Both the position numbers and the translations under genes were made by a program. Below the pieces are notes generated by a model that made no database searches, was not told where the DNA came from, and worked only from the letters and a program-made list of their open reading frames with translations. Of a DNA stretch of 64,000 bases, positions 7,320-49,307 are shown in pieces (within the stretch, counting starts at the first letter, position 1; every line of letters starts with the position of its first letter). Source of the DNA: a virus (Duplodnaviria; Caudoviricetes); IMG/VR virus record IMGVR_UViG_3300029288_000067, positions 64,001 through 128,000 of that record; one strand, given 5' to 3'.

Positions 7320-7348
7320 ATATTACCGCAAGACCCTCAAAAATTCAA
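7320..7348 (-). promoter_or_regulatory. repeated early promoter TTGAAT-N17-TAATAT
   Basis: The -35 TGA is the stop of the Nudix gene. Confidence 0.8.
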
Positions 7349-7950
7349 ACAATTCCTTTATTTTTTGCATCCTGTAAAATCATTTTTGCCCGCCAACCGA
7401 TATCCGGATTGGACATAACATTCTCAAAGGTTGTCCAGATAGTATCCATGTTGGCTTCAAATAAATTTTCTGGATCTTTCTTCTCCGGGGGCATACGGTT
7501 GACATCAATCAAGAACCCATAGACTGTTTCATCTGTAGAAGTTCCCACTAAATATTCCCCCGTCTTTTTCAAACGATCTTTGTTTACTGTATATCCGGCC
7601 TCTTCTTTTACCTCTTCGATAACAATATCCTCTACGGACAATTCCGGCTTATCGAGGGACCCCGTGAAGGCATCAACAATAAATTTTTTGTAGGGAGAGG
7701 AATAAGATTTCAAGATCCCAAACTCATTGTTGTGGGAGGGATCATACAACACAAAAGCAACGGAGTTTTTTCCAAGTCTTTGTACATAATAAAACCACCC
7801 GTTTTCCTCGCTGCCATGCCGAAGAATTTCAAGGTATTTTTTCTTTTTCTTGAATGCCGGGGTTTTGTATATTGACTCTGTTTTGAAGGTCTGTATTAAT
7901 TTTTTGAATTCATCCGTTATTTTTGCCAGCTTGGAGTATCTTGAAATCAT
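7345..7950 (-). CDS. Nudix hydrolase carrying the shared N-terminal tag
   Basis: Nudix box GSLDKPELSVEDIVIEEVKEEAGY; N-terminus MISRYSKLA. Confidence 0.8.
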   Translation of the reverse strand: MISRYSKLAKITDEFKKLIQTFKTESIYKTPAFKKKKKYLEILRHGSEENGWFYYVQRLGKNSVAFVLYDPSHNNEFGILKSYSSPYKKFIVDAFTGSLDKPELSVEDIVIEEVKEEAGYTVNKDRLKKTGEYLVGTSTDETVYGFLIDVNRMPPEKKDPENLFEANMDTIWTTFENVMSNPDIGWRAKMILQDAKNKGIV

Positions 7951-7959
7951 TGGAGATCC

Positions 7960-8250
7960 TTACAAAGGTGTTTCTTCAGGAGATTCTTGTTCGAAGTTTT
8001 CCTTGTGATAATTCAATTCCCCAATAGCATCTTCAATTGCAGATACAGCAGCATTCAGTTTATGTGCAACCTGTTTCAAATGCCAAGCATAGTGAGGAGC
8101 GGGTTTCTTTGCTCCCAATGTCAACAATTCATTTTGTAAGTCTTCTACCGGCTTCTTCAATGCTTCCAACTTTTGATTGTATGCAGCAAAAGCGGAATCC
8201 AATTGAGGGTCAACTCCCGCCAAATAACTGATTTGTTTCTTAATACTCAT
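7960..8250 (-). CDS. coiled-coil hypothetical protein (possible virion protein)
   Basis: AGGAG SD; N-terminus MSIKKQISYLA. Confidence 0.7.
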   Translation of the reverse strand: MSIKKQISYLAGVDPQLDSAFAAYNQKLEALKKPVEDLQNELLTLGAKKPAPHYAWHLKQVAHKLNAAVSAIEDAIGELNYHKENFEQESPEETPL

Positions 8251-8268
8251 TTTAAAGCTCCTATGGAA

Positions 8269-8304
8269 AAGAGGTGATATACTTTGAAAAATATATCACC
8301 TCTT
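8269..8304 (-). terminator. intrinsic terminator
   Basis: AAGAGGTGATATA...TATATCACCTCTT followed by a T-run. Confidence 0.65.
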
Positions 8305-8321
8305 AAAAAGAATTTCATTTG

Positions 8322-8732
8322 TTAATTTTTTCCATTCCATACCCGGGTATACTCTGCCCTCAATCGTTCAAGATTTTCATGGGCATCTCGAAACATTTCC
8401 TCTTTCTCTTCCTGGGGGATATCAATGCCGGAAACTACAAAATCTTTCAATTTCTCCTCAGAAAATTTTCCGCATTGAACGAGTCGCAGAACTCCAATTA
8501 CTTTTTCAATAGATTCCCCACAAATATCTTTGTAAAGAATCCAAATGTTGGAGCCATAAAGTTCCATTGAATCCAGATGCAGAATAGCCCCCAGACCTAT
8601 GAAAGCACACATGGGATCAATCCGAGGCTCATCCCGAAACAACAGCATTAACACTGTAATAGCCCCAGGATTTCCTTCAGCCATCTTTGATAGCAATGTT
8701 ATAAGGTTATCTTTCATTTCCAGTTTTGGCAT
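8322..8732 (-). CDS. hypothetical phage protein
   Basis: GGAGAGG SD; MAEGNPGA motif. Confidence 0.7.
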   Translation of the reverse strand: MPKLEMKDNLITLLSKMAEGNPGAITVLMLLFRDEPRIDPMCAFIGLGAILHLDSMELYGSNIWILYKDICGESIEKVIGVLRLVQCGKFSEEKLKDFVVSGIDIPQEEKEEMFRDAHENLERLRAEYTRVWNGKN

Positions 8733-8741
8733 ATCCTCTCC

Positions 8742-9656
8742 TTAAAATTCCACACCGGTTCCAACATCGATAACAACCAGACCGCTATCCCGCCACATTC
8801 GCACAACACTAGGTCGATCATCCACAACAAACACAATCCTCTTCGGATCGAGATATTTGTCGAGAATTTCTTTCTTCACAAAATGGTCGGGCCGGAAATC
8901 TCCGGAACCTCGCATCAAAAGCTCAAAATTTTCAAACCCTTGTTGTTTCAACCAATGTTCTGTTTCAAACCTCTGATCTTCGGAACGAGCAGAAACAAAC
9001 ACTACCTTCAAGCCGGTTTTGAGATGACCTTTGAGAAGTTCTTTCACATCTTCTCTTACAGGATCATTTGGGATACCCAAGAAAAATTGTTTCCAATTTT
9101 TAGGCTTTTCTGCAACAAAATGCTGCCGATGTGTGCAATCCGCAATTGTCCCGTCCAAATCACAAAGAAAGTATCTTTCGAGAGAGATCCTGTGATTCTT
9201 TGTTGAAATGTAGTCTTCTCTGTTTTTGAATTCAATACCATATCGCTCTGCCATCTGTAGGATTACAACAGAACCTACCCGGGGATGCCGATAATAATCC
9301 CGAAGAAGACACTCTCCTACAGGAGTATCCACGGCTTGTATCCGGGCAAAGGTATTCATTTTACCGGCAAACTGTTTCCAATCCAAAACAGTCTGGGTTT
9401 TGAGATTGGTATCATCAACGATTACCGATTTACCCATCTTCAAGGCTTCCTCGGCAATCAAGAATTCCGCTTGTGTTACCAGCTTTTCCAAAGCACGATC
9501 AAAACGACCGGTTCCTTTCACATTCCCATAAATCATTTCCCGGAGAGAATCCCGAGAAACAATAATGGAATTTTCATCGAGGAGCTTTTTTGCTTCGAAA
9601 GATTTCCCGCTCCCCGGCAATCCCTGCATCAAAACAATCGAAGGAAATTTATTCAT
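8742..9656 (-). CDS. pseT: polynucleotide 5'-kinase/3'-phosphatase (T4 PseT/Pnk-like)
   Basis: P-loop GLPGSGKS, SRDSLR, DDTN; HAD domain DLDGT, SAR, K, DDR. Confidence 0.9.
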   Translation of the reverse strand: MNKFPSIVLMQGLPGSGKSFEAKKLLDENSIIVSRDSLREMIYGNVKGTGRFDRALEKLVTQAEFLIAEEALKMGKSVIVDDTNLKTQTVLDWKQFAGKMNTFARIQAVDTPVGECLLRDYYRHPRVGSVVILQMAERYGIEFKNREDYISTKNHRISLERYFLCDLDGTIADCTHRQHFVAEKPKNWKQFFLGIPNDPVREDVKELLKGHLKTGLKVVFVSARSEDQRFETEHWLKQQGFENFELLMRGSGDFRPDHFVKKEILDKYLDPKRIVFVVDDRPSVVRMWRDSGLVVIDVGTGVEF

Positions 9657-10108: not shown

Positions 10109-10137
10109 ATTTCCTCCGGTTTTTTCTCGATAGTGGT

Positions 10138-10166
10138 ATATTACCCGGAGCCCCCTATTTATTCAA
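10138..10166 (-). promoter_or_regulatory. repeated early promoter TTGAAT-N17-TAATAT
   Basis: Motif match. Confidence 0.8.
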
Positions 10167-10170
10167 GCCA

Positions 10171-10704: not shown

Positions 10705-10713
10705 ATATTTCCT

Positions 10714-10965: not shown

Positions 10966-10970
10966 GATAC

Positions 10971-11151: not shown

Positions 11152-11153
11152 AA

Positions 11154-19352: not shown

Positions 19353-20465
19353 TTAAATTTGTACACCCACTTGCCGAAGTGTAGTATTTACCTCTTCGGT
19401 AAAATTCCCTTGTGTCATCTCATTGAACAAATCCTTCAAGGATTCATCGGGAGACACGGCTTCTTCTACGTATTGGAGCATAGACCCTGATTGGTGAGAT
19501 GTATTGATTGCAACATTTACTGCCGCAAAAATATCCCCAAGGGATTCTGCAGCAATCAATCCATTGTAAGCATTTTGTACATTTTCTCGGGTTTGCTCAA
19601 TACCCCTCGGCCTCCAATATCCGAACCACAGAGGAAATACAACAGTAGCCCCAATGGATACTAAGAGGGACTGCTTTGCATCTTCGTCATATGTATTTTC
19701 AAAGAAACTCATCAACTCTTCGTATTTCATATTTTCTGCATAATCTCTCCAAAAATTAGGGGTATCAAACTTTTCTTGGAGCATCCGTTCAATTTCTACA
19801 TCAATTTCTTCTTCTGATAACTCTGGTTGAAGGCTGTTTTCTTCTTCAAAACTTTCCGGGTTGGACTTCCAATCACTTTTCAGCATTTCCCTGTCCACTT
19901 CTTTCAAGGAATCAATATCTTCCCCCATGACATCCTTGAAAGCATTTATTGCCCGGGGGTCTTCAAATAATCTTTGAAGAAAATCATTTTGCCAGTTTCG
20001 GCGCATTTGTTGAACATTATATGCTGTGGGGTAAATTCCATTATTCTTGTAACGAACAAACTCATCAAAGAACCCATTCACAACATTTTCAAAAGACCCA
20101 TCTGCAGCATATGCATCATAGATTCTTGCTTGTGCCCATTGTTGGGGATTCATAATAGCATGTCCTCGTAGCCATTTGGAAAAAACCCCTTCAAAAATTT
20201 CCTTCATCTCCAAAGAAACTTCTTGGAAAGTCTCTTGAACTCTTTCCAAAATAACATCTTTTCTTCGTTCCATTCCCGAAAATGGCTTATTTTTTAACAT
20301 CGAATAGGTATATTCCAACCGATAGAAATCTCCCACAAGCATTACAAAATCTCCGGAATACCCAATCCCATAATCCCCATCATGAATATTACCTTGTTCG
20401 GAATTCCGGGTCCAAAGAGTTTCATTGCCTGCGGCAAGAAAACTGTAAGCCATAATCATTCGCAT
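19353..20465 (-). CDS. acidic hypothetical protein with tag-like N-terminus (putative internal virion protein)
   Basis: AAAGGA SD; MRMIMAYSFLAA; C-terminal AINTSHQSGSML. Confidence 0.75.
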   Translation of the reverse strand: MRMIMAYSFLAAGNETLWTRNSEQGNIHDGDYGIGYSGDFVMLVGDFYRLEYTYSMLKNKPFSGMERRKDVILERVQETFQEVSLEMKEIFEGVFSKWLRGHAIMNPQQWAQARIYDAYAADGSFENVVNGFFDEFVRYKNNGIYPTAYNVQQMRRNWQNDFLQRLFEDPRAINAFKDVMGEDIDSLKEVDREMLKSDWKSNPESFEEENSLQPELSEEEIDVEIERMLQEKFDTPNFWRDYAENMKYEELMSFFENTYDEDAKQSLLVSIGATVVFPLWFGYWRPRGIEQTRENVQNAYNGLIAAESLGDIFAAVNVAINTSHQSGSMLQYVEEAVSPDESLKDLFNEMTQGNFTEEVNTTLRQVGVQI

Positions 20466-21222: not shown

Positions 21223-21666
21223 TCAAATCTGGTAGTGAAAATCCTCAAAATAAAATTCTACATGCCCTTCCGGTAAGTTGTATACCCCTTTTATTGCCTC
21301 CTGTACCTCCATATTTTTCTTCAATTTCTTCGGTAAATAAACCCGAAATATATTTTTGTTGGGATCAGCAAAGAAAACAATACGTCCTCGGGGAATTTCT
21401 TCATACTCGAAATGTTTCCACTTTGGGTTTTCTCTTTTTATTTCTTTCCATTCAGAATAATGGTCCCCGGAATAAATCTTATTTCCATCCCACGTTTCTG
21501 CCTTGTTGAGCGGAATACTCTTTCCCCAAATCTTTTTTGTAGGGTTATTCACATCCACCCAAAAAATACCCACCTCTGGGATAGATGCGGTTTTGCTCTT
21601 ATCCTGGAAAAAAGCACACATGTTTCTAATATGCACTTCTCTTGTTAAAGCAGAATACTTTTTCAT
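21223..21666 (-). CDS. tagged hypothetical protein (leaderless start)
   Basis: MKKYSAL; VGIFW, H..W, YEEIPRGRIV, DFHY. Confidence 0.75.
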   Translation of the reverse strand: MKKYSALTREVHIRNMCAFFQDKSKTASIPEVGIFWVDVNNPTKKIWGKSIPLNKAETWDGNKIYSGDHYSEWKEIKRENPKWKHFEYEEIPRGRIVFFADPNKNIFRVYLPKKLKKNMEVQEAIKGVYNLPEGHVEFYFEDFHYQI

Positions 21667-21672
21667 ACTCAT

Positions 21673-21701
21673 ATATTACCCTTTAGGGGGTAAAACTTCA
21701 A
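21673..21701 (-). promoter_or_regulatory. repeated early promoter TTGAAG-N17-TAATAT
   Basis: The -35 TGA is the stop of 21698..22312; ATG lies 6 nt downstream of the -10 box. Confidence 0.85.
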
Positions 21702-22312
21702 TATGCTTGTTCATATTCCCTTAAAGCCCCAGGATTCCCAGATTCAATTACACTGTAGGGGACTTCAGTATAATATTTTCCCGTAGAAGAAACTTCAATG
21801 TTAAATGTTTCGGTGTCTGCTTCCTCATTGTAAGCATCCCCCAAACCTCGGGCAATATCCCGCAACTGTTCCGGAGTAAGAGTCCAAGTTTGTACATACT
21901 CTTGTTTTACTCTTACCCACCCCAAATTCTTCAAGCCATACTCCCGTGCATCTACATTTCCAAGGACCAATTCAAACTTGTCTTTATCAAATCCAATTGT
22001 TTCAAGGATGAATTTGTGGATTTGTTCTCTCGTGGGATGCGGGGTCTCAGTATCATTTTTATCCACTTCGCTATCCAAATATTTTTCAATTTCAAACTCA
22101 ATCTTGGTAAAATCGGGATATTCCTCATTTATTCGAGAACCAATCTCCGCATTAACCTCTTCCACAAGCTCTTGCATTACTTGTTGTTGTACCATTGCCT
22201 CATGGTTCATATCCCCGATATCTCCATCGGCGAATACAGCCTGCCCACCCATCAACCAAAACTCCCCTTGCAATTCCGCTTGTCTTTTTAAAGTAGAATA
22301 TCTTTTAATCAT
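21698..22312 (-). CDS. tagged acidic hypothetical protein
   Basis: MIKRYSTLKRQA; GEFW, NHE, GWVRV motifs. Confidence 0.75.
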   Translation of the reverse strand: MIKRYSTLKRQAELQGEFWLMGGQAVFADGDIGDMNHEAMVQQQVMQELVEEVNAEIGSRINEEYPDFTKIEFEIEKYLDSEVDKNDTETPHPTREQIHKFILETIGFDKDKFELVLGNVDAREYGLKNLGWVRVKQEYVQTWTLTPEQLRDIARGLGDAYNEEADTETFNIEVSSTGKYYTEVPYSVIESGNPGALREYEQAY

Positions 22313-23337
22313 TTCATTAAAACCGTAGAATTAATTTTCTTTTTTGTGGGGTCGAATGTCTTGTTGAACACTGATTTTATTTGTGTGGAATAAAAGGGGA
22401 TCCATACCTCATGTCGGGTGGGGTTATATTTTCCACCCACATCTTTTATCCCATCATACCCAAAAGATTTTAAAACATCTGTAACCCAGTCTGGGATACG
22501 TGTCCAGACATAGTTGGTACCATTCTTAATATCTTCTTCCAAAGTTTGGAGCCAATCTTTCCCACTTATTGTATTCTTATCCCAAAAGTCTGGGTTTCCA
22601 CCTTTGGGTGGTTTAGAACGTTGTTTCATCCCCTTTTTATGTAAAGCTTCTAAGATTATTTTTGGTATATTTGATGTATCCAAAGGATTTTGAATGCTTA
22701 GATAAACAGAGTAAACTGCCGGATAATTTGCATTGGGGTCATCATATCTTACCTTTGACATGTTTATACCCGTTGCTTTTAAAACATCTAAAAAAGTTCT
22801 CTCATCATTAAAAAGAGCCCCGGAAGACAACCAAATCTCCACAAGGGCATGAAGAGCATTTCCCCCACTTTCTTGTAGATGATGATCAATAGAATCTTTT
22901 CCAAAAATACTTGTTGAATTTGGGATAATATTTCCGGAGCCTTCCTCCGGATTTTCATATCCAACCGTATATAAAAGATTTACAACAGAGTTTTTTTCTT
23001 GTGGGGACAAAAAATACCATGCTCTATCTATAGGAACTTCTGAACGTCCTACTATATATTTAAACCATCCGGCATATCCCTCGGGATGATCCAAACTTGT
23101 ATCTTTTTTACCTTGTGCATATCCACTAGCAATTTCAGGATTATCAGTAAAAAAAGCCATCGGACCAGAAGTAGCTCTATTTGGATTAAAATAATCCTTA
23201 ATTCTATCCGGACGACCTGCGCCATGGTAAACCACTTTAGGTCTCCCTTGTGCATCCACCACTTTAGAGTTACCAAACCAAGCATTAAAAGAAGGGTTAT
23301 TAAAAATATTGGCTAACTCAGAGTATCTCTTGATCAT
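22309..23337 (-). CDS. tagged ADP-ribosyltransferase-like (ART-PolyVal-type) protein
   Basis: FNAWFGNSKVVDAQGRPKVVYHG, FFTDNPEIASGYA, VYLSIQNPLD, GYDGI, QIKS. Confidence 0.7.
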   Translation of the reverse strand: MIKRYSELANIFNNPSFNAWFGNSKVVDAQGRPKVVYHGAGRPDRIKDYFNPNRATSGPMAFFTDNPEIASGYAQGKKDTSLDHPEGYAGWFKYIVGRSEVPIDRAWYFLSPQEKNSVVNLLYTVGYENPEEGSGNIIPNSTSIFGKDSIDHHLQESGGNALHALVEIWLSSGALFNDERTFLDVLKATGINMSKVRYDDPNANYPAVYSVYLSIQNPLDTSNIPKIILEALHKKGMKQRSKPPKGGNPDFWDKNTISGKDWLQTLEEDIKNGTNYVWTRIPDWVTDVLKSFGYDGIKDVGGKYNPTRHEVWIPFYSTQIKSVFNKTFDPTKKKINSTVLMK

Positions 23338-25283
23338 TTCATCTTGATCCTTTTAATTCTGGATTGGCGATTTTCGTAAGCATCCTTTGCAGCATCTATC
23401 AACATCTCATCGGTAAGTTGTTCCCGAGGCTTCGGCTTGTCCGTATGCCAATCTCCCTCGTTGTGTAAAAAGTAATAAATATGATCTGCGAAAACCTTGG
23501 AGGAATGCCAAAGTTCACTTTCATCTGGCGGGATCTTTCCATTATTTTGTCTTTGATACTCTTCTATCGCTCGTGAATCTTCATATTGAAGTTCTTCACC
23601 CGCCCCTACCGGATGCGCCCACCTTCTCCACATTTCAGCAAGTTCCCCTTCGAGGGAATAAAAAGCCCCGGAGTCATCAACATCCATAGGACTATGGAAT
23701 AAATCTTTCACACCGTAGGTATCTTCGGCATCGTCCACCTCGGTCTCCAACTCTTCTTCTCGGGTGTCTGTTTTTTCAAGAATTTGTTCAAGTAGTGCGT
23801 CTAACCGTTCTGCCTCGGTATAATTTTTCCGTTTGTATTCCAGATCAATTTTCCGCATCAAAGCATCGATCTTTGTTTTTTCCTCGGGAGAAATCTTTGC
23901 CTTTTTGCTTGCCATCCGAATATTGTTGATGGAGATGAATTCCCGCATAATATCTTCGGGCATCTCCAAATTGTGGATGTAAGATTTAAAAGCTTCTGCA
24001 TAATCTTCGGAAGGATTGTTTTTTCCGTATTCTGTTGTAGAGTGCGGTGGTTCAATCACCTTATTTTCCCAATTTCTAATAATCCGTTCTTCAAACTCTG
24101 AAACTGTTTCAAAAGATTCCTGATATCTGTCTACTGCAACCTCTTTTCGTCTTTCGGAAATAGAAGGATCATCTTTTAATTCTACGGGGATTCTTAAATT
24201 CTTTGCTGCCCAAGACAAGCCCCCAAAAGAATCTTTTTCAAGCAGATAATCGTTCACAAAGGCTTTCCCAACCTCCTCCATAGTAACAAGATCTAATTTC
24301 ATCAGATCTACCCAGTATCGAGCCATGAATTCAAGGGTTTTGTAACGATTTGATTCAGAGTGATAAACTCGATAATCAAATTTTTTGTAATCAAACAAAT
24401 CCCAAGCAACAAATTTGTTTCCATTCATGTCTATCTTTTCCGGGGCGCAAGAAGCCATCAAATCCAACAAACCTGAGATTTCCTTCCGAGTTAAAAATTT
24501 TCCCCGGTCTTTGAAATGAGATTGCCACCGCTGCCTTTGTGAAATAGACAGGATTTTGTAGTAATGCCGATGTGCCAATTCATGGGTAAGGATTTTAAAG
24601 TTGCGTAAATTCTCTGCGGTAATAACTACCCGGTCATTCTGAATATCAAAGTGTGCCGCAGCTTCCACATTTTTGTATTGATCCTGCCGCATATCCAAAA
24701 CGGTCCCAGACATTTTTGAACCAACCATTACGAGAGGCCCGTACAAAACACTCCCAAATCCCATTTTTCGGATTTTATCCATAACAGGATTTAATCTTTT
24801 CAAAAGGTCTTGTAGGATCTCTTCATCCACTCCGGCATTTACAATTGAAAATCCATTCCATTCAAAAGTTTCTCTCTTTATGCCTCGTCCTTCCCCAGGG
24901 GTTTCAACCAATCCATGTTTTCTCAACAATTCCAATGCTTCCGGAGATTTTTGTGCAAGATCCCAGAATTTTTCCCCAGGAGTATTAAAAGGATATTTGA
25001 AAACAATGTCTTGCAGGCCGCGTTTGCTGATGTTCTTGAAAATCCAGTCCAATTTGGAAAATTTATGAGTTCCCACATTTAAAAGCACATTCAACAAAGG
25101 GGGATCTGTTTCGAGGAGGTTTACAAGCTTAACTTCAATCCCATGGGTGAACTTTGTCATCTCTTTGATGAATGTGGAAATGTTGCACCGAATAAGAAAG
25201 TCCATCCTATTTTGATAGGAGTTTACCGAGGAATAATCAACTTCTGCAATTTTTTTAATATTTGAAAATTTAAGAATGGACAT
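23334..25283 (-). CDS. tagged zincin metallopeptidase-domain protein (MPTase/lethal-factor-like)
   Basis: LTHELAH (HEXXH) and TEYGKNNPSEDYAEAF. Confidence 0.7.
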   Translation of the reverse strand: MSILKFSNIKKIAEVDYSSVNSYQNRMDFLIRCNISTFIKEMTKFTHGIEVKLVNLLETDPPLLNVLLNVGTHKFSKLDWIFKNISKRGLQDIVFKYPFNTPGEKFWDLAQKSPEALELLRKHGLVETPGEGRGIKRETFEWNGFSIVNAGVDEEILQDLLKRLNPVMDKIRKMGFGSVLYGPLVMVGSKMSGTVLDMRQDQYKNVEAAAHFDIQNDRVVITAENLRNFKILTHELAHRHYYKILSISQRQRWQSHFKDRGKFLTRKEISGLLDLMASCAPEKIDMNGNKFVAWDLFDYKKFDYRVYHSESNRYKTLEFMARYWVDLMKLDLVTMEEVGKAFVNDYLLEKDSFGGLSWAAKNLRIPVELKDDPSISERRKEVAVDRYQESFETVSEFEERIIRNWENKVIEPPHSTTEYGKNNPSEDYAEAFKSYIHNLEMPEDIMREFISINNIRMASKKAKISPEEKTKIDALMRKIDLEYKRKNYTEAERLDALLEQILEKTDTREEELETEVDDAEDTYGVKDLFHSPMDVDDSGAFYSLEGELAEMWRRWAHPVGAGEELQYEDSRAIEEYQRQNNGKIPPDESELWHSSKVFADHIYYFLHNEGDWHTDKPKPREQLTDEMLIDAAKDAYENRQSRIKRIKMK

Positions 25284-39080: not shown

Positions 39081-41279
39081 TTATACTGATCCAACTACTG
39101 CCTCTTGAGCGTCTGTGAATGATGCACCTGTGCGGGTAATCACAACTCGGAAATTTACATACTCCACGTCTTGGGTGGGCTTAATATACAAATCCACATT
39201 CATTCGATATTGATCAATGTCTGTCGCGGAATTGTTAGAGTCATTGCAAACCACTAAGAAATCGTATACCCCTCTTCGGGCCTTAATGTCATTCATATAG
39301 TCAATTAGCAGGTCTTCTACTTGACTACGTGTTGCTTCATCATTAAGCTCGAACAAGAAATCTTCGAGGGTTTTTGCAATAGCTGGTTCAATAACACAGA
39401 GCAACAAGCGAACATGCAAACGAGAAAGGGTAGAAGGTCTTCCGAGAAGAGTTTTGTTACCCCAAATCAAGATACCACGTCCAGGAGCGAAACGAAGTGG
39501 ATTGATACCACCACCACCGGAAACAGCACCATCATAGAGGTAATCCATTTCACCCTTGCTGAAACGTCTGCGAAGATCGAGAACATTCACTTGCCCACGT
39601 CGGAAACCTGCGGGCGGGAACCACATTTCAAAGTTCAATGCGGAGTAGCTGATTGCGGCACCGGCATACCCTTCTGGGGAAACGAACAAGTTTCTGTCAT
39701 TGAACTTATCGTAGATCTTTACGTGTGGCGTGTACAATGCACTGAAAGAGCTTGACAGATTCAGAACATTCATCCAATAGTCTGTGATTTCGTTCAAATA
39801 GTTTTCAGAAGCTTCTCTTTCGTAAGGAACAGACAACAAACAGACGCAATCATGTCTCTTTTGTGCGATTGCATCAATATGTTTCTGATACGCAGGAGTT
39901 GCCCAACCACCATCCATGAAGCAGGTTACAGGATAGGTGTCTGCATTTTCGAACTTATCCGCCGCCAACATCATTTTTCCATCGGTTACCGGGTCCCCAT
40001 CATTTCCACCGTTGTGATACAAAGGAGTAACTTGTGGAAGAGGATTTCCAAGGGTAAGAGGGTTCACCATTGCGCGAATAAGGTTTGAGCCTTCCAATAC
40101 ATCTTCGATGTAGAGGTTTTGTCCAAAACCATCTTTTGAACCGATTTCCAAAGAAACCGGCCAACTTTCCACGGGGATATTCAGGTTGGAGCGGTGGAAC
40201 ACTTCAATCAAGAATGAGTTAACTTCAGAAACAACCTTCATAGGAATGATCTGTGCCGTTCCTTGTCCAACAGAAGAAAGAACAAGAGTTACACCGGCAA
40301 GAGCATTATCAAGAGAATTTGCCAACTTGAAGGATGTTGCAGTATCTCTTACAGTGTAATAGGTGGAAGTTAAATCTAATCCTGTGGGCAATACATCTCC
40401 CGTTGCAGAAGAAAGCATTGTGAATCGGATAGGTTCTCCGGAAACAAATTCTTGTGCAGAGAGGATTTTTGTAGAGGCATCTGTCCCACCAGAAAGAGTT
40501 GCGGTGTTTGTTCCAGCAGACAAATCCCAAGCTGTGGCCCCGGAAGCAACCGTAACGGTCAAGATATCTGCAACAAGTGTGAGGAGGGCAGTTCTGATTT
40601 GATTCTGTGTTGAAACAGTATCTTCGATGGTTACTGTAATAACATTCCCGACTTTTACAGCCGTTTCAGCCCCTGCAGTTCCACCATCTACGATATTGAT
40701 TACAATACCATTCTTGGTAGAGCCCGCAACAGCATTTACAGTAATTTTTGCATCAATGACAGCCGTTGCAGAAGTTGCAACAGCATTTACGATGTTTGTT
40801 GAATTCAGAGTTAAAGATTCACGATCTCTCTTCAACCAGATTTTCAAACAAATATCATCGGACCAATCACCGGGATCAGCTTGATAGATAGTGAATCTAT
40901 CGTTTGTGTCAAAGGTGTAGGCAGTAGGATCAGTTTCCCCGGCCACCCAAGCAATGTTGGTGGTTTGGTTCAACTTGCGAATTGCAAGTCCACCGTACTT
41001 GTAATTGTCCCCAATAACACGCTGTACCCACATTTTGTCGGATTTCTGCATAAATGCCAAACCGGAGAAAAATCCGAGAGAATCTCCAACTTCCACTTTT
41101 CCCAATGGGGTGAAAGTTTGCAAGAATTGTGTTTCAGAGGTTGTCAAACGAGGTTGATCGATAGGGCCTTTGCTACATGGAAGAAGCAAACAACCATAAA
41201 CCCCTGGGAAACCCGGGACACGAGTAGAAAGATCAATTTCTTGAATATTTACAGCAGCAGATCCACCTGAAAGTGTCAT
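39081..41279 (-). CDS. contractile tail sheath protein
   Basis: EIDLS, GPIDQP, WFPPAGFRRG, INPLR, ILIWGNKT, VRLL, LFELND, YDFLVVC..SNN, YIKP. Confidence 0.95.
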   Translation of the reverse strand: MTLSGGSAAVNIQEIDLSTRVPGFPGVYGCLLLPCSKGPIDQPRLTTSETQFLQTFTPLGKVEVGDSLGFFSGLAFMQKSDKMWVQRVIGDNYKYGGLAIRKLNQTTNIAWVAGETDPTAYTFDTNDRFTIYQADPGDWSDDICLKIWLKRDRESLTLNSTNIVNAVATSATAVIDAKITVNAVAGSTKNGIVINIVDGGTAGAETAVKVGNVITVTIEDTVSTQNQIRTALLTLVADILTVTVASGATAWDLSAGTNTATLSGGTDASTKILSAQEFVSGEPIRFTMLSSATGDVLPTGLDLTSTYYTVRDTATSFKLANSLDNALAGVTLVLSSVGQGTAQIIPMKVVSEVNSFLIEVFHRSNLNIPVESWPVSLEIGSKDGFGQNLYIEDVLEGSNLIRAMVNPLTLGNPLPQVTPLYHNGGNDGDPVTDGKMMLAADKFENADTYPVTCFMDGGWATPAYQKHIDAIAQKRHDCVCLLSVPYEREASENYLNEITDYWMNVLNLSSSFSALYTPHVKIYDKFNDRNLFVSPEGYAGAAISYSALNFEMWFPPAGFRRGQVNVLDLRRRFSKGEMDYLYDGAVSGGGGINPLRFAPGRGILIWGNKTLLGRPSTLSRLHVRLLLCVIEPAIAKTLEDFLFELNDEATRSQVEDLLIDYMNDIKARRGVYDFLVVCNDSNNSATDIDQYRMNVDLYIKPTQDVEYVNFRVVITRTGASFTDAQEAVVGSV

Positions 41280-43255: not shown

Positions 43256-43546
43256 CTAGAAAAATCCATTCTGATCCACCCGTAGATTTATCTTCTTTTC
43301 CAACAAAGGTTCAATCCATTGGTGAATATAATCGGCACTCCAAACATAATAATTATCCAATTCATCTCGTGTGCTTCTTGTGTTGGGTGTTCCCGGGGGC
43401 GCAAAGGGATATTCTTCCCGAAAAGCTTTCTTCAATTCCCAATAATCTTCCGGGGTGGGGTTCTTGAAAACTTTTACTCGTCGCCCATTCCCCAGAACTA
43501 ATTCAAAGACACTATTTTCTTTCAGAGAAGAATATTTTTTAACCAT
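43256..43546 (-). CDS. tagged hypothetical protein
   Basis: MVKKYSSL; VFKNPT, YVW...IH. Confidence 0.65.
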   Translation of the reverse strand: MVKKYSSLKENSVFELVLGNGRRVKVFKNPTPEDYWELKKAFREEYPFAPPGTPNTRSTRDELDNYYVWSADYIHQWIEPLLEKKINLRVDQNGFF

Positions 43547-44129
43547 ATATGAATTCATCGTTTTCAACCAATTTCATTTTGTGGAAAGCAAACCATATTT
43601 TCACTTCTTTCAAACATTCTTCTCTGTGACCACCAACTAATTCCGCCCCTTGGAAACGATGCAAAACTTCTTCGGAAATATCCGGAACAATCAAGGGGTC
43701 TCCGTCAATAAATCCATGTGAATTTAACTCATCTATCTCCTCTTCGGAAAGGAATGTTCCCCAATCTTCTTCAGGAATATCCCGGGAATCCGTTAAATCA
43801 TTATCCACCATATGTCGGAGGGTTTTAAGGATAACGCTATCATCGATTCCCGTATCCATCCATGCTCTGAAAAAAGCATAGCCCTTATCAATAAACTCTA
43901 TTTGATTTAGATTTTCCTCTTCTAACCCATTCTCCAACAGCCAATAGGTTAATTCGGTCTCCGAAGACATTCCCAAGGATTCCCCATTATATAGATATAA
44001 AACATTGTTTTTGGTCTTCAAATACTCTACAAAATCCTCTATGCTGAAATCGATGTTTTTTTGATACTCGGGTTGAATATCCACAACAATCAATTTACCC
44101 TTCGATAAAGCAGAATATTTTTTAATCAT
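43539..44129 (-). CDS. tagged isochorismatase/cysteine-hydrolase-like protein
   Basis: MIKKYSAL; LIVVDIQPEY, DKGY, LVGG...ECL. Confidence 0.6.
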   Translation of the reverse strand: MIKKYSALSKGKLIVVDIQPEYQKNIDFSIEDFVEYLKTKNNVLYLYNGESLGMSSETELTYWLLENGLEEENLNQIEFIDKGYAFFRAWMDTGIDDSVILKTLRHMVDNDLTDSRDIPEEDWGTFLSEEEIDELNSHGFIDGDPLIVPDISEEVLHRFQGAELVGGHREECLKEVKIWFAFHKMKLVENDEFIYG

Positions 44130-45022
44130 GCGGCAGATCCTTTTGTTACCAATTCTAATTTTTTCTGCATCTTTTTGATTCTACCCTCTAGTTTTTGTTG
44201 GATATACTGTGATGGGATTTTATCCGAATTCCAGCCCATTTTTCTTACTTCTTCTTGTTTCCAGAATCTTTTTGCTTTTTCTTGAATATCGTTCGGGAAA
44301 AAAGACAAAGGATATTGTTGCGCGGGGCTCGGTAATTCCGGCAATCGTTTATCCACTTTATGTTGTTCCCGGAATTTTACTCCGGAATAATCAAATTCGG
44401 TAAATTTAAACTCGGGATCATATACAACGGAAATTCTTTCCGGGAAGGAGAGTTGATTCACCTTTTCCACATCCGCCTTATATTTTCCCAAGATGGTATC
44501 CATCTTCAGTTTTTCCACAAGAAGTCTTGCAAGGGATTTAGAAGTATTTCCAACACTCTTCACAAGATCTTTTTCATCTTTTGTTACGAGACCTAAGAGA
44601 ATAGGGATGGTTTCTGCAGATACTGCTTTTGTTGCCCCATCGGGGAGTTGCACAACAAACTCATGAACAATCAATCTCCCCGTTTCATCATTCAAAGATG
44701 GATTATCCCAATCCGATACCCGCTTTTCAATTGTTCCTTCAAGATCATCCTCTGCCAATTCCCACTTGTATTGCCATTTATACGAGAGTAATTTTGCTCC
44801 GGAGGGTCCTGTAATTGGTGGGTTGAAAACAATAGTTTCCACAGGTCTTCCCCGGCCCACTTCCAAATTGGAGTATTTTTGTATTTCCATAGAAGAGATA
44901 TTACCCTCTGCCCCCAAGAAGTTCAAAGTAGATTCCTTTTTTGAGCTTTCTTCCGGAGTAGGCTTAGGAATAAAATTTGGATTAGAGAACCATTCGGCGA
45001 GGTTTGAAAATTTTCGGATCAT
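44126..45022 (-). CDS. tagged hypothetical protein
   Basis: MIRKFSNLA; GPSGAKL..Y.W, RVSDW. Confidence 0.7.
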   Translation of the reverse strand: MIRKFSNLAEWFSNPNFIPKPTPEESSKKESTLNFLGAEGNISSMEIQKYSNLEVGRGRPVETIVFNPPITGPSGAKLLSYKWQYKWELAEDDLEGTIEKRVSDWDNPSLNDETGRLIVHEFVVQLPDGATKAVSAETIPILLGLVTKDEKDLVKSVGNTSKSLARLLVEKLKMDTILGKYKADVEKVNQLSFPERISVVYDPEFKFTEFDYSGVKFREQHKVDKRLPELPSPAQQYPLSFFPNDIQEKAKRFWKQEEVRKMGWNSDKIPSQYIQQKLEGRIKKMQKKLELVTKGSAA

Positions 45023-45765
45023 TTATTAAAAACCTGCCCATCGATCAAAGATGCTTTAAACTTCTCGTATTCTTCCAGGGTAATCTTGAACATCTTCAGC
45101 CCTTTTGTTGTTCTTACTTTTGGGTAGGGGGCAAGATCGGGATGCGTGGAATACCCAATGTTCAATTCAATCCAATCTTCTGCAAAAAGAAATGTTTTTG
45201 CAAAATATCTCAAATCGGGAAATTGAGATCCATAATTTTTATCCAACACAACAATGGAGCAAGTATTATCCATTCTCTTACGCAGGAAAACAAGCCTCTC
45301 GGATACTTTTTTTAAATTATGCTCCAATGCTTCTGTATTTAATTCTTCCGACAAGGGGACATTTAATCCCAGTCCTTTTATCCTTTGTATTTCAGCTTTG
45401 AAATTAGAACCATGCCCACCCCTATCTCCGGTATCCTTCCATATTTCCCGAGAAAACAAAAGAATATGGATCATTTCATGAACCATGATGCGGGTCAAAA
45501 GCTCAAGATCAAATTTGTAATTTTTACTGATCTCAATTTCTTTTGGGGTCATTTTCTCTATTGAAACATTTCGGATCTTCCACCAAACAGAAGCTCTTGC
45601 AATTCCCAATTGTTTACTACTTCGGGCAATACCTACAGGGACCTTCGGCACAGTATTATTGAAATATTTTGCATTCATTTCATCGAAAAAAACATTCAAA
45701 TCAAATGTTTGAATATTTATCAAATCCCCGTATTCTTTTGCAAGATGTGAGTATCGTAGGATCAT
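45019..45765 (-). CDS. tagged SprT-like zinc metalloprotease
   Basis: MILRYSHLA; FDEMNAKYF, VHEMIH, HGSNFK. Confidence 0.8.
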   Translation of the reverse strand: MILRYSHLAKEYGDLINIQTFDLNVFFDEMNAKYFNNTVPKVPVGIARSSKQLGIARASVWWKIRNVSIEKMTPKEIEISKNYKFDLELLTRIMVHEMIHILLFSREIWKDTGDRGGHGSNFKAEIQRIKGLGLNVPLSEELNTEALEHNLKKVSERLVFLRKRMDNTCSIVVLDKNYGSQFPDLRYFAKTFLFAEDWIELNIGYSTHPDLAPYPKVRTTKGLKMFKITLEEYEKFKASLIDGQVFNK

Positions 45766-46846: not shown

Positions 46847-46848
46847 AA

Positions 46849-47352
46849 TTACCTCAATCGAATTCTGGAGTTGAAAACTTGAATAAATGGACTATTCCCG
46901 TAAAGAAAATTGAGTGTCCCAGTGTTGGGAATACCAATAATAAACTTTTGAGATGTTTTCTTCAATCGTTCTGCTTTTGCATCGAACTCTTCCAATAGAG
47001 CCCGGTACAAATCTTTGTAGTCCCCTAATTTAGAGGGGAGATTTAATTCTCCGATTGTTGCATCAAATCCATTTTGTGTCCACAGATGTACAAGCATACG
47101 GATAACATTTTTTGCGGCTCCAAGATACAGGAGAGATTTCCAACGAGTATCCGGGGTGTCGTAGATGGTAACAACCGAAAGAAATGTTTGTGGGGCAAAA
47201 GAATTGATATCATCGGCAGCATCGTAAATAGCTGCAGCAATATCATCCTTATCTGGGATATAATCCAAAATATTATCTGCAAGGGTGAAATGCCAGCGAC
47301 TCTCAACACCCTCTACTATTTTTTGGATTGCCACATTCGGAGGTGTGGACAT
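46849..47352 (-). CDS. putative head-tail connector (neck) protein
   Basis: Helical AIYDAADDIN..AP.T pattern and C-terminal helix typical of neck adaptors; inferred. Confidence 0.55.
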   Translation of the reverse strand: MSTPPNVAIQKIVEGVESRWHFTLADNILDYIPDKDDIAAAIYDAADDINSFAPQTFLSVVTIYDTPDTRWKSLLYLGAAKNVIRMLVHLWTQNGFDATIGELNLPSKLGDYKDLYRALLEEFDAKAERLKKTSQKFIIGIPNTGTLNFLYGNSPFIQVFNSRIRLR

Positions 47353-47413
47353 TGTTTTCTCCCTTACGAAAGTTTTTCAATATCTGTCTATTTCAATACA
47401 TTCGTAAAAGAAA

Positions 47414-47435
47414 CCCCGGGCATTTCTACCCGGGG
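47414..47435 (-). terminator. intrinsic terminator
   Basis: CCCCGGG...CCCGGGG followed by TTTCTTTT. Confidence 0.7.
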
Positions 47436-47445
47436 CTGGTTTATC

Positions 47446-47853
47446 TCAAATCTTTCTCTTAGGGGGTCTTCCTCTTGGATCTGTTCCAGGAAGATTGGGG
47501 GTCATATCGTATTCTGCCCGCTCTTTTGCAATTGCTTCATCCACAACTTTCATGGGGGTTTCCAAACGCATATCCTTCAAGTCTTCCATCTTTTGTTCCA
47601 TTGGGATTTTCCCGGGGTTTGTATAAATAGAGTCAACAAAAGTCATCATGAGGTGTTTTTTGCCCGAGGTAAGGGGTCTATATTGATTACCTTTAATTGT
47701 TTCCCAATAGGTCTCCCCAAACAAATCCCAGCTTCCAGTCAAATCATCATCATTGGCATCCATAGCATAAAAATCAATGTTATGCCTATTCTTAAATTCT
47801 TCCCATGTCTTGGAGAAAATAGCAGTTTTCTTTATACTAAGTTTCTTAATCAT
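47446..47853 (-). CDS. hypothetical protein with tag-like N-terminus
   Basis: MIKKLSIKKTA; AAGGA SD. Confidence 0.7.
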   Translation of the reverse strand: MIKKLSIKKTAIFSKTWEEFKNRHNIDFYAMDANDDDLTGSWDLFGETYWETIKGNQYRPLTSGKKHLMMTFVDSIYTNPGKIPMEQKMEDLKDMRLETPMKVVDEAIAKERAEYDMTPNLPGTDPRGRPPKRKI

Positions 47854-47870
47854 ACTTTTACTGTTCCTTT

Positions 47871-49307
47871 TCAGATGTTTTCGAGAGCAGCTTTGAGGTG
47901 TTCATTAAAATTATCATCCTCAACAGTTGCATTATTATACGCAGAATTTGTTAGGTGCTTAATCTCTCTCTCGGAAATCTTTTGGTCCTCGGATTGAATT
48001 AACTCTTCCCCGCTTTGCATAATTCTTTTCATCTCTCTATCATCGATGCGGATAAAGTTGTACCATTTTGTTGTTAATTCCTTTGGGAAAATATAAAAAT
48101 ACCCTGAAGGATACCACTGGGAAAAATCAAAGCCATAGTGGGATTGAAAAGCATCTCTTACATTACTCAACAAATCAACACTAATTGCATCGTTATTTGC
48201 CCATGAATATGCTTGTTCTATTACATTCTCAAAATTAAAAACATCCACGGAATCACTGAGGGCATCAAGAACGTCAATAACTTCCGAAGTATCATCAAGT
48301 GCTGCCCATTCTTCCGGAAATTGTTTTTGAAGAGCATCAAAAATTATCTTTTTATTCTGCTCAGAAATAAAAATATATCTTTTAACAATATCTTTGATAT
48401 CACTGTAAGACGGACTACTACTTAGTTCTTCGGTCCCATCCAAGAACTCATCCAGTCTATCCCCTTCAATAGATTTCTGGAATAAATAAGATGCTTTATC
48501 CAATTGAAAAGCAAAACGACCATTTTCATCCCCAAACTTTGCCAACAATTCCGAAATCTTTTGTGGAGGAAGATATTTGTTGGAAAAAAATGTGTTTATC
48601 TCCGGATATAATTTCAAAAAGGACTCAAAATCAATCGGGTCATCATCTTCATTCATAAATTGTTGTGCTTCGAAATGAAATTGAAACTGTATAACGATAC
48701 GTTCATGTTTTTTCAACAAAATCCACAATGTCCCCGATTTAGTATATTGTGCGAAATTATCGGGATATTGAGTACACCATCGAGTCCCTCTTGCATAAAA
48801 TTGGGATGCTTCCAAAGTCTTCGGGGAAACAATCTTCCACTTTTCATCCTCGTATTCAAGAGTAGCCTGTTTTGTTTGTATGTAATAATCATTGGTCAAC
48901 AAAACCATAGGATCTTCGTCCACATCTTCCACCTTCGGGGCAACAAGGGTCTTCTGTTGTTGTACAAAGTGAAATAGCTCCGAGGGGTTTTTAAATTGAT
49001 TGATGTCTGCAGATTTGTTACTATTACGAAGGCTTGGGATAATTTGGTTGAATGTGGATAAATCTTCTGTGATTTTGTACAAATCTTCCAGCTTCAATTT
49101 TCCCTGTTGATACATCCGTAAAATCCATTGACCATATCGCCCTATTTTTCTCGGTGCTTCTGTGTTCTGTTTTTGTATCTCTGGATCAGCAGAAACCAAT
49201 CGATTGAAAATATCCCGGGGAATATCCGAATAGTATTTTGTGTATGCTTCTTCAATCCCGGCAGTCACCAGAAAGGATTCCACTTTTAAAACAGAGAAAT
49301 GCTTCAT
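47871..49307 (-). CDS. PcfJ-like domain protein with tag-like N-terminus
   Basis: MKHFSVL; DINQFK, EDEKWKIVSPKTLEASQFYARGTRWCT, QFHF..QFMNEDD. Confidence 0.6.
   Translation of the reverse strand: MKHFSVLKVESFLVTAGIEEAYTKYYSDIPRDIFNRLVSADPEIQKQNTEAPRKIGRYGQWILRMYQQGKLKLEDLYKITEDLSTFNQIIPSLRNSNKSADINQFKNPSELFHFVQQQKTLVAPKVEDVDEDPMVLLTNDYYIQTKQATLEYEDEKWKIVSPKTLEASQFYARGTRWCTQYPDNFAQYTKSGTLWILLKKHERIVIQFQFHFEAQQFMNEDDDPIDFESFLKLYPEINTFFSNKYLPPQKISELLAKFGDENGRFAFQLDKASYLFQKSIEGDRLDEFLDGTEELSSSPSYSDIKDIVKRYIFISEQNKKIIFDALQKQFPEEWAALDDTSEVIDVLDALSDSVDVFNFENVIEQAYSWANNDAISVDLLSNVRDAFQSHYGFDFSQWYPSGYFYIFPKELTTKWYNFIRIDDREMKRIMQSGEELIQSEDQKISEREIKHLTNSAYNNATVEDDNFNEHLKAALENI

Follow-up and report, generated by a model that had tools for sequence, protein, structure and literature searches.

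The closest described system is the capsid-targeting sequence (CTS) of phage T4, MKTYQEFIAE, which loads diverse internal proteins (PMC8442874, PMC3012670). The internal proteins of T-even phages are diverse defence proteins with only the conserved CTS in common (PMC3012670). IPI-III and Alt carry it (Mullaney and Black 1996, as cited in PMC8442874, PMC3012670 and PMC5694885). In phage P1, the N-terminus of the anti-restriction enzyme DarB bears a capsid signal whose critical residues lie near positions 6-10; this signal suffices to bring a foreign protein into a myophage head (PMC9024508). Encapsulins use short, portable cargo-loading (targeting) peptides to bring diverse enzymes into an HK97-fold shell (PMC11866011, PMC10960027). 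Packaging is predicted for the polyvalent proteins of phages and conjugative elements (Iyer, Burroughs, Anand, de Souza and Aravind 2017, PMC5512222), and the ADP-ribosyltransferase (ART) Alt of T4 is packaged and injected (PMC5512222).

The phage described here is uncultivated and is a relative of Bacillus phage G. The window is a 64-kb stretch of its 224-kb genome (G000), which was compared with that of a 197-kb relative (G001) whose major capsid protein (MCP) is 90% identical.

About 22 otherwise unrelated proteins of this phage share the eight N-terminal residues M-I-K-K-Y-S-x-L, with Tyr5 and Ser6 nearly invariant. The strict form of the motif, M[IVL]x[KR][YF]Sx[LI], was searched in all six reading frames of the complete genome (224,066 bp). 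It has 19 matches (against 0.3 per mononucleotide shuffle) and every one is the N-terminus of an ORF of 96-444 aa. With a position-specific matrix (PSSM), 23 positions of G000 score at least 14 (0.2 expected) and 19 N-termini score at least 10 (0.28 expected); the scan also finds two or three internal copies within ORFs. The majority of tagged genes are found beyond the window, between 129.5 and 138.5 kb of the genome and at 173 kb. Those in the window, and their relevant neighbours, are as follows.

7345..7950, minus strand: tagged gene, 201 aa, MISRYSKLA; strict motif, PSSM 18.3; body weakly Nudix-like.
19353..20459, minus strand: borderline candidate, 368 aa, MIMAYSFLA; PSSM 8.1; no homolog found among tagged proteins.
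21223..21672, minus strand: tagged gene, 147-149 aa, M(S)MKKYSAL; core score 14.3, p = 0.0004; no Pfam family found in the body.
21698..22312, minus strand: tagged gene, 204 aa, MIKRYSTL; strict motif; ATGA overlap with the upstream gene.
22309..23337, minus strand: tagged gene, 342 aa, MIKRYSELA; polyvalent-type ART (Pfam ART-PolyVal, 5.7e-16), YHGA motif at residue 37; ATGA overlap with the upstream gene.
23334..25283, minus strand: gene with degenerate tag, 649 aa, MSILKFSNIKKIA; PSSM 11.1; HELAH (HExxH) at residue 234; no Pfam family found.
39081..41279, minus strand: tail sheath gene; phrog_23 at 2.2e-71; synteny in G001.
43256..43546, minus strand: tagged gene, 96 aa, MVKKYSSL; strict motif; 47% identity to part of a tagged G001 protein.
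43539..44129, minus strand: tagged gene, 196 aa, MIKKYSAL; strict motif.
44126..45022, minus strand: tagged gene, 298 aa, MIRKFSNLA; strict motif.
44861..44890, minus strand: second, in-frame tag-like copy, M-EIQKYSNLE, residues 45-54 of the 298-aa protein; PSSM 20.4.
45019..45765, minus strand: tagged gene, 248 aa, MILRYSHLA; SprT-like metalloprotease (Pfam SprT-like, 1.5e-9), HEMIH at residue 96; 34% identity to a tagged G001 protein.
47871..49307, minus strand: probable decayed tag, 478 aa, MKHFSVL; motif alone non-significant (p = 0.06); body homologous to G001 tagged proteins and to a multi-paralog tagged family.
61445..62308, minus strand: major head protein, HK97-type, of the phage G lineage; phrog_2522 at 2.9e-50; 39% identity to the phage G major head protein.
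62894..63991, minus strand: presumed scaffold, 365 aa, placed between the protease homolog and MCP genes; 58% identity to the G001 protein in the equivalent position; no family match and no similarity to phage G gp21; it may be the receptor for the tag.

The pattern is real and more pronounced than the first-pass annotation claimed, and all its coordinates were verified, on the minus strand except for the weak match MKYLSTLYCA (plus strand). Seven of its ten 'strong' matches fit the strict motif (starts 7950, 22312, 23337, 43546, 44129, 45022 and 45765). MKKYSAL (21666) keeps the whole core but has no Ile; the start MSILKFSNI (25283) is degenerate, although its protein is 33% identical to a G001 homolog that begins MIKSFSQL; and MIMAYSFLA (20459) is borderline, with p about 0.001-0.004 per gene and an uncertain start codon. 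The five 'weak' matches each have p = 0.003-0.06, which is non-significant over 356 genes. Four cannot be distinguished from chance, MKYLSTLYCA and MSIKKQISYLA among them, and only MKHFSVL (49307) is backed, by its homology to tagged proteins.

The tag is a short portable N-terminal peptide, not a domain. As proposed at first pass, its codons differ from gene to gene: Ser is TCT, TCA, TCC or TCG, Leu is TTG, CTG, CTC, TTA or CTT, and Lys/Arg is AAA, AAG, AGA, CGA or CGT. Selection therefore acts on the peptide. Among homologs, identity is 0.68-0.79 in the tag and 0.43-0.62 in the next 22 residues; conservation stops at residue 10 and information content is at background by residue 12. The core, M-I-[KR]-K-Y-S-x-L, continues weakly into [KHA]-[K/I/N], with an Ala close by. 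AlphaFold models of two cargoes have no disordered N-terminal stretch other than the tag: residues 1-9 have pLDDT below 50 in the first (mean 92.7), as do residues 1-10 in a second cargo, where residues 11-100 are at 77-91.

An Ala often follows the tag, as had been noticed: it occurs within residues 9-13 of 59% of tagged and 23% of untagged proteins (p = 5e-6). The proposal that the tag is removed after this Ala found no support. Neither T4-type (hydrophobic-x-E) nor phiKZ-type ([SAG]-x-E) cleavage motifs are enriched downstream, and processing by the protease is therefore unsupported.

The bodies of the tagged proteins are of the kind found in polyvalent proteins. Every ART-PolyVal gene in the two phages (four between G000 and G001) bears the tag. 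Pfam bears out the ART-like and SprT assignments made at first pass; the 'zincin' body (25283) is identified as such only by its HExxH motif, and the 'Nudix' body (7950) is weak, since the Pfam NUDIX match (E = 0.004) misses the cut-off and a Nudix box is absent. None of the RNA-repair enzymes (three RNA ligases, PNKP, a CCA-adding enzyme and RlaP) is tagged, in agreement with the earlier reading. Among the 150 best homologs of a small tagged ART, 90 are proteins of at least 1000 aa with the ART at an internal position, and the closest are mostly domains within proteins of 2,000-5,800 aa. At another locus (L127) the domain of a 206-aa cargo family is the C-terminal part of a larger protein (946 aa), whose gene lies between those for the portal and for scaffold/MCP. 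Only two ORFs have two modules, each module preceded by its own tag. No MuF domain was found in the G000 genome.

Tagged arrays occupy the same three slots in both phages: upstream of protease-scaffold-MCP, downstream of the portal (two tagged genes in G000, nine in G001) and upstream of the sheath, at a distance of about 2 kb. The 11-gene array of G000 is translationally coupled to late structural genes; where it ends lies a homolog of gp19, the prohead protease of phage G (E = 2e-14), and after that come the scaffold-like gene and then the MCP gene. The prohead protease is the only enzyme gene that adjoins an array in both phages. The tagged genes at 7.9 kb and 21-25 kb of the window have RNA-repair, not structural, genes as neighbours. 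The description of the cargo set as 'swappable' proved apt: G001 has about 21 tagged genes with bodies mostly different from those of G000, and tagged orthologs are only 33-63% identical or absent despite the 90% MCP identity.

The tag itself is replaced in other clades. Homologs of the 206-aa cargo that are at least 55% identical keep it, whereas more distant ones have the same body with starts MNWYK, MRxW[IM]xLCE, MxFKxWLxE or MRLFEI. Among solo ART homologs, some have a tag of MIKKYSxL type and others MNWYK. In cultured phage G, nine enzymes bear a tag particular to that phage, MKRLIKK (M[KR][KR]L[IVL][KR][KRA]: 9 ORFs against 0.2 expected). These phages share the head-gene lineage, the cargo families (ART, 206-aa) and the arrangement of a short tag followed by an enzyme, but the peptide sequence differs from clade to clade.

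Compared with the known systems, the tag is most like the T4 CTS. Both consist of about 10 extreme N-terminal residues on unrelated, fast-evolving proteins including an ART, both have a short basic/aromatic/hydrophobic pattern, in neither is anything else conserved across the diverse anti-host proteins concerned, and in both cases the genes lie near late structural genes. The two have no significant sequence similarity, however, and the hydrophobic-x-E site of T4 was not found after the present tag. The head genes are of phage G type rather than T4 gp21/gp22/gp23 type, and more than 20 cargoes, mostly enzymes as long as 649 aa and without a marked basic character, replace the handful of small basic proteins of T4. 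The function of the present tag is putative. The P1 Dar proteins have no common consensus, whereas here one consensus is found on more than 20 proteins. Duda, Oh and Hendrix reportedly described, in 2013, a C-terminal capsid-targeting tail on the HK97 prohead protease. Peptides of this and the encapsulin kind are usually C-terminal with another consensus, and shell binding of the present tag is putative. Polyvalent proteins share with this phage ART-PolyVal and SprT/zincin-type peptidase domains, genes near portal/head genes and a predicted early action after injection (PMC5512222); here the domains are separate genes, each with a short tag, instead of one polypeptide.

We consider it somewhat probable (about 0.55) that the tag is a virion-loading address, probably for the head, which would work like the T4 CTS without being a member of it. 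This rests on its enrichment, strict N-terminal position, selection at the protein level and separation from the fold; on a cargo class that matches packaged polyvalent proteins; on the cargo domain within the 946-aa protein; on arrays that stay beside protease-scaffold-MCP and portal in both phages; on cargo that turns over fast under a fixed tag, with addresses swapped on the same bodies; and on the precedents of T4 CTS and P1 DarB. The 8-10 residues would form a free, flexible address peptide on more than 20 unrelated enzymes and, during late gene expression, would dock each onto one common component of the assembling particle, most likely in the prohead interior (scaffold, prohead protease, portal or the inward surface of the shell with its HK97 fold). 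We infer that this binding is followed by encapsidation, possibly by tag removal by the prohead protease, and by injection. The enclosed enzymes would enter the next host with the DNA and act ahead of any phage gene expression, for example by ADP-ribosylation, proteolysis and other host-takeover or counter-defence chemistry. The capsid-targeting reading given at first pass therefore retains its portable tag, injectable-type bodies, head-gene adjacency and swappable set, while removal after the Ala is unsupported.

Counted against this reading are the RNA-repair neighbours at 7.9 and 21-25 kb, the tagged proteins not being unusually basic as T4 internal proteins are, the lack of a cleavage motif, and the invariant Tyr5-Ser6 pair, which could equally be a modification or enzyme-recognition site. 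The internal tag copies fit a docking or cleavage site and are awkward for a free N-terminal signal unless internal starts are used.

It is unlikely, in our estimate, that the tag is recognised by a shared enzyme, chaperone or protease unrelated to the particle. Such recognition could mean modification of Tyr5/Ser6, timed degradation through an N-degron, or silencing of toxic enzymes in the producing cell by a common inhibitor or chaperone. The near-invariance of these two residues and the many potentially toxic bodies would suit this, and phage G encodes ClpP, but ClpP is absent from both G000 and G001. No enzyme gene other than that of the prohead protease is kept beside an array in both phages, which points to the head, and in its repertoire and homologs the cargo matches packaged polyvalent proteins.

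Rather more doubtful is an address that would direct the proteins to the baseplate or tail tip (PAAR spike, hub or tube lumen), in the way that contractile injection systems load effectors. In G000 the large array shows ATGA coupling to a baseplate wedge gene and adjoins PAAR and hub genes, and in two 170-kb phages (L128 and L129) an untagged homolog of the 206-aa cargo directly follows the PAAR gene. In G001, however, the baseplate genes have been relocated about 120 kb from the array, which still adjoins protease and portal. A phage tail tube is, moreover, occupied by the tape-measure protein. ART genes of T4-like phages also adjoin baseplate genes, yet Alt is packaged in the head (PMC5512222).

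The tag is very unlikely to be without function as a peptide, that is, to be a translation (re-)initiation element of coupled genes or a scar of cassette duplication or recombination at gene boundaries. The upstream stop codon is overlapped by 62% of tagged genes (mostly ATGA) and 13% of untagged genes, the first codons are A-rich, and the tag Ser is encoded by TCN throughout, AGY being absent, which suggests that the tag DNA has a common origin. Nevertheless, codons vary freely at synonymous positions and the amino acids, Tyr-Ser-x-Leu among them, are fixed; the tag is kept among homologs only 30-55% identical; highly expressed structural genes lack it; and other clades put unrelated peptides on the same bodies. 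A single paralogous family with a common N-terminal domain was tested, is unsupported and has a negligible probability: some families exist (2 + 4 paralogs with a common N-domain of ~220 aa, three ARTs, and two proteins with a common 130-aa domain), but without their first 12 residues most tagged proteins have no detectable mutual similarity, conservation ends at residue 10, and the predicted folds do not include the tag.

The principle of a virion-loading address is already known from T-even phages and P1 DarB, which qualifies the earlier suggestion of novelty. No description of the MIKKYSxL, MKRLIKK or MNWYK-type tags of phage-G-like phages was found in the literature, and the phage G literature searched has no per-protein information on its tagged proteins. 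The present peptide, its use on as many as 20 enzymes and more, and the replacement of one tag by another from clade to clade among phage-G-like phages look undescribed. If the tag is a virion-loading address, the phage would in effect have an 'unbundled polyvalent protein', with domains encoded as separate genes under one address where others inject one giant protein; single cargoes could therefore be gained, lost or swapped.

The pattern M-[IVL]-x-[KR]-[YF]-S-x-[LI] occurs 19 times in a six-frame translation of the whole 224,066-bp genome, compared with 0.3 times per shuffle, and all 19 copies are the start of an ORF (96-444 aa). When these copies are used to build a position matrix, 23 positions score at least 14 (0.2 expected). 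When shifted and alternative starts are counted (MSMKKYSAL, the GTG-start MILKYSLL and MSILKFSNI), about 22 proteins bear the tag. The window, where nearly all genes are on the minus strand, holds nine or ten; eleven form a single array just beyond its end (genome 129.5-138.5 kb) and two follow the portal gene (genome 173 kb). The ten 'strong' matches of the first-pass annotation include seven that obey the strict pattern and two supported variants, leaving MIMAYSFLA as only borderline. Its five 'weak' matches have p values of 0.003-0.06 each, short of significance over 356 genes. Related-phage homologs of one of these (MKHFSVL) and of the supported variant MSILKFSNI carry better tags.

As the source of the shared start, a peptide tag was weighed against a common domain and a nucleotide signal. 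It is a short N-terminal peptide (~10 aa) carried by otherwise unrelated proteins. Information content is high for residues 1-8, weak for residues 9-10 and at background from residue 12, and most tagged proteins have no mutual similarity once the first 12 residues are removed. In the AlphaFold model of a 206-aa tagged ('cargo') protein encoded next to the portal gene (mean pLDDT 92.7), only residues 1-9 fall below 50 and the fold begins near residue 18; in that of a second cargo protein, residues 1-10 are below 50 and residues 11-100 reach 77-91. Body dissimilarity, the drop in information at residue 12 and these models led us to reject a common N-terminal domain or a single paralog family. 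Among homologs, identity is 0.68-0.79 over the tag and 0.43-0.62 over the next 22 residues. The earlier observation that the DNA codons differ is borne out by synonymous variation at every conserved tag residue and, because synonymous sites vary, an RNA- or DNA-level signal is ruled out as the main cause. A Sec or YSIRK-type (Gram-positive) signal peptide was also rejected, since no hydrophobic core (~15 residues) follows the basic N-region. Residues 9-30 are less hydrophobic in tagged (0.325) than in untagged proteins (0.365), and this stretch of tagged proteins is rich in charged residues. Alanine, said to follow the tag often, is indeed enriched at residues 9-13 (59% of tagged and 23% of untagged proteins).

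The best-supported reading is that the tag would be a virion-loading address, with the prohead as the favoured destination; it would be analogous to two known systems. The T4 capsid targeting sequence (CTS), MKTYQEFIAE, loads diverse internal proteins with nothing else in common (PMC8442874, PMC3012670), and P1 DarB has an N-terminal capsid signal (PMC9024508). The principle is already known from these two phages. Like the CTS, the tag is short (~10 aa), N-terminal and found on unrelated proteins. Unlike the CTS, which ends in a gp21 site (Leu/Ile-x-Glu) and is cut off in the prohead, it is followed by no enriched site of this kind, and the phage is without the T4-type head machinery (gp21 S77 protease, gp22 core and gp23 major head protein (MCP)). 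A search for T4-type or phiKZ-type cleavage motifs behind the tag gave no enrichment: tagged and untagged proteins have [LIVMF]-x-E within residues 9-30 in 30% and 36% of cases, respectively, and [LI]-x-E in 11% and 23%. A basic 'internal protein' character was also sought in the tagged proteins and not found. The missing cleavage motif, the non-basic cargo and the position of some tagged genes away from structural genes all count against the reading of the tag as a virion address.

The genomic context was compared with that of the 197-kb relative IMGVR_UViG_3300042258_000341 (G001). The minus-strand order is baseplate wedge, PAAR and hub, then the 11-gene tagged array, a 128-aa ORF, a protease, a 365-aa scaffold-like protein, a cement-like protein and the MCP. 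The first gene of the array overlaps the wedge gene by ATGA; overall, coupling is tight, in that 62% of tagged genes overlap the upstream stop codon, compared with 13% of untagged genes. The protease has no Pfam match (Peptidase_S77 included) but is homologous to the annotated head maturation protease gp19 of phage G (E = 2e-14). The MCP is of the phage G type (phrog_2522) and 39% identical to that of Bacillus phage G; judged by this sequence, it places the phage in the Bacillus phage G lineage. For the putative scaffold and cement proteins, no similarity to gp21 and gp26 of phage G was detected. One further gene borders the MCP gene:

Window 59584-61398, minus strand: HNH/homing-endonuclease-matching gene (~590-600 aa, C-terminal matches), directly downstream of the MCP gene

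The same position in G001 is occupied by a 588-aa gene (G001 locus L003, 11042-12808).

The two phages are 90% identical in the MCP, 76% in the protease, 70% in the portal and 58% in the scaffold-like protein. G001 has 21 tag matches and none to a reversed control pattern. Its tagged bodies are mostly other than those described here, the few orthologs being 33-63% identical. The array sites are kept: directly upstream of protease-scaffold-MCP, downstream of the portal (nine genes) and upstream of the sheath. Arrays adjoin the portal and protease-MCP genes in both phages, and other tagged genes lie among RNA-repair genes. Loading into the tail tip instead of the head is kept as an alternative. 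In its favour is the array next to the wedge, PAAR and hub genes; against it, T4-like ADP-ribosyltransferase (ART) genes also adjoin baseplate genes although T4 Alt is packaged in the head (PMC5512222). In G001, the baseplate genes are elsewhere, away from the arrays; because the arrays keep their positions while the baseplate genes have moved, linkage to head genes is conserved and linkage to baseplate genes is not. MuF-anchored delivery was rejected, as the genome has no MuF domain.

Among the tagged proteins, Pfam identifies ART-PolyVal domains in three and a SprT-like domain in one; a 649-aa protein has an HExxH motif, and the 'Nudix' label given earlier to another body proved to be a weak call only. 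All ART-PolyVal matches of both phages fall in tagged genes. The 166-aa tagged ART, used as the query of an exhaustive search, gave 1,465 relatives. Among the best 150 of these, 90 have a length of 1,000 aa or more and an internal ART, and such long relatives are classical polyvalent proteins. Of the short solo ART homologs, six begin with a MIKKYSxL-type tag and two with MNWYK or (L)NWYR. Polyvalent proteins carry 2-15 effector domains per polypeptide (Iyer et al. 2017, PMC5512222). The cargo resembles them in its ART-PolyVal and zincin/SprT-type peptidase domains and differs in that tagged proteins are single-body genes, with only two ORFs having two modules. If the tag is a virion address, the tagged set would be delivered as an 'unbundled' polyvalent protein. 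In T4, the ART Alt is both packaged and injected (PMC5512222).

As the first-pass annotation noted, the tag is absent from the RNA-repair enzymes; those encoded between the arrays are three RNA ligases, PNKP, a CCA-adding enzyme and RlaP. The helicase and the structural proteins are also without it. The RNA-repair set is located as follows:

Window 4222-12248, 25333-30694 and 37106-37783, minus strand: RNA-repair genes, interleaved with tagged effector genes

This dense set includes three RNA ligases (of the Rnl1, OB-fold and phrog_24030 types), PNKP, RlaP, a metallophosphatase and an enzyme of the CCA-adding/poly(A) polymerase family.

Two cargo families were examined further:

Genome 130387-131721 and 134370-135857 (L001:2387-3721 and L001:6370-7857), minus strand: most expanded tagged family (alignment A2)
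G001 33494-35134, 55839-57260, 59027-60382 and 184821-186431: members of the same family
Genome 173574-174194 (L002:3574-4194), plus strand: portal-adjacent 206-aa cargo (alignment A1)

Members of the most expanded family have a conserved N-domain of ~220 aa (tag, AGATKQQID...GTKWCT...) and divergent C-terminal parts, a layout that resembles, by analogy, that of polymorphic toxins. No Pfam family covers this 444-aa family, and a PDB fold search for it gave no match.

The 206-aa family is widespread (43 database clusters, 66 viral loci, L124-L189), all-helical and well conserved, with 18 invariant residues and the consensus ...LPxxVxxAFxxLGDxQRGxPExAML...GGGVLSPVVEHxGDLIHRM... It has no Pfam family and, despite its high-confidence model, no PDB fold match. 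Homologs at 55% identity or more have the tag. In remoter homologs the body is conserved and the start is another short one, sometimes recurrent (MNWYK, MRxW[IM]xLCE, MxFKxWLxE, MRLFEI). The family is found solo, fused within a 946-aa protein by the portal gene, or adjoining a PAAR gene: in locus L127 it is the C-terminus of the 946-aa protein, whose gene lies between the portal and scaffold/MCP genes, and in L128 and L129 an untagged copy directly follows the PAAR gene.

In smaller phages with this family, other short N-terminal peptides are common to neighbours of very different length:

L134, 835-1191, minus strand: short-peptide gene
L134, 8473-8952 and 16022-18466, plus strand: short-peptide genes
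L136, 3847-6284 and 12466-14412, plus strand: short-peptide genes
L188, 4329-6801, plus strand: short-peptide gene

These genes are close to replication-type genes, not head genes. In the smaller phages MN[ED]MRKLME is carried by proteins of 105-814 aa and MRL[FY]E[IV] by proteins of 63-278 aa, the 206-aa cargo homolog included.

In a few cases the tag is also found inside an ORF:

Genome 132777-133907, beyond the window: two-module ORF (tag, ~130-aa domain, second tag, second body)
Genome 137359-138480, beyond the window: two-module ORF of the same architecture
Window 44861-44890: second in-frame tag, M-EIQKYSNLE, at residue 45 of a 298-aa protein

The ~130-aa domain is homologous between the two-module ORFs and ends in ...WTG. 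The second tag is in frame and is preceded by GTG, not ATG, in one of them. There are two readings of these copies: translation also starts internally, or the tag works in mid-chain too, for instance where the protein docks or is cut. We further keep the reading that the tag would be recognised by a shared enzyme or chaperone or be a degron; the invariant Tyr5-Ser6 is in its favour and, for a degron, the lack of a phage ClpP is against it. A degron for a phage-encoded Clp protease was rejected: PF00574 is absent from both phages, although present in phage G. A translation or recombination signal is a weak alternative that fits the codon data poorly.

A scan of 2.9 million viral contigs with back-translated MIKKYSxL gave clusters in just one close relative, G001. 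Other hits are single, in a number compatible with chance. Many of the single hits are ORF-initial MIKKYSxF[IL]xE peptides in unrelated AT-rich phage contigs (L005, L010, L046, L053, L056, L058, L062, L077, L091 and L099), with variants such as MIKRYLEFIKEN, MNINKYIEFINEN and MIKGYRQFIKES. In these peptides the opening residues of the tag are joined to the Y-x-x-F-I-x-E pattern known from the T4 CTS. In three of five such contigs, ORFs of ~700 aa match the T4 gp21 protease family weakly, below the cut-off.

Cultured Bacillus phage G (NC_023719) has an N-terminal peptide of its own, M[KR][KR]L[IVL][KR][KRA] (for example, MKRLIKKS), in nine ORFs, where shuffles give 0.2. If the Met is left out of the motif, 14 copies lie near N-termini and one is internal.

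Phage G 16055, 28218, 35181, 73330, 178671 (minus strand), 244460, 245985, 388147 and 446709: starts of tagged ORFs

The bodies are PARP-like (weak match), nucleoside 2-deoxyribosyltransferase-like, GNAT and unknowns. Several of these ORFs run on into ...[FY]HGT[SD], with which ART domains begin. Near the head genes there are looser relatives of the tag (MKKFSRLQKKAAG in gp56 and MSKKISRLKKTAL in gp20). The text of a 2025 paper includes no per-protein proteomics for phage G, and our literature search found no paper on the tag described here, the phage G tag or clade-specific tag swapping.

The codes differ by lineage: MIKKYSxL here, MKRLIKK in phage G and MNWYK in others. We propose, with a probability of roughly 0.4, that in phage-G-like huge phages lineage-specific, interchangeable 8-residue N-terminal codes take the place of covalent linkage in polyvalent proteins and bring a large, fast-changing library of separate enzymes into the particle. 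Phage G, a cultured phage with a tag of its own, makes the idea open to ordinary virion proteomics and tag-reporter fusions. If the proposal is correct, one could read an uncultivated phage's injected proteome off its sequence, and the tag and its receptor would be a portable cargo-loading system. A tag that loads the particle would mark the full set of ready-made enzymes delivered with huge-phage DNA. More than 20 such proteins, most with unknown bodies, would be identifiable in this phage by sequence alone, providing a direct list of candidates for host takeover and counter-defence. Such loading would also account for the one-by-one exchange of domains that elsewhere are fused into giant polyvalent proteins, and the T4 capsid-targeting principle would be in wider use, with clade-specific codes.
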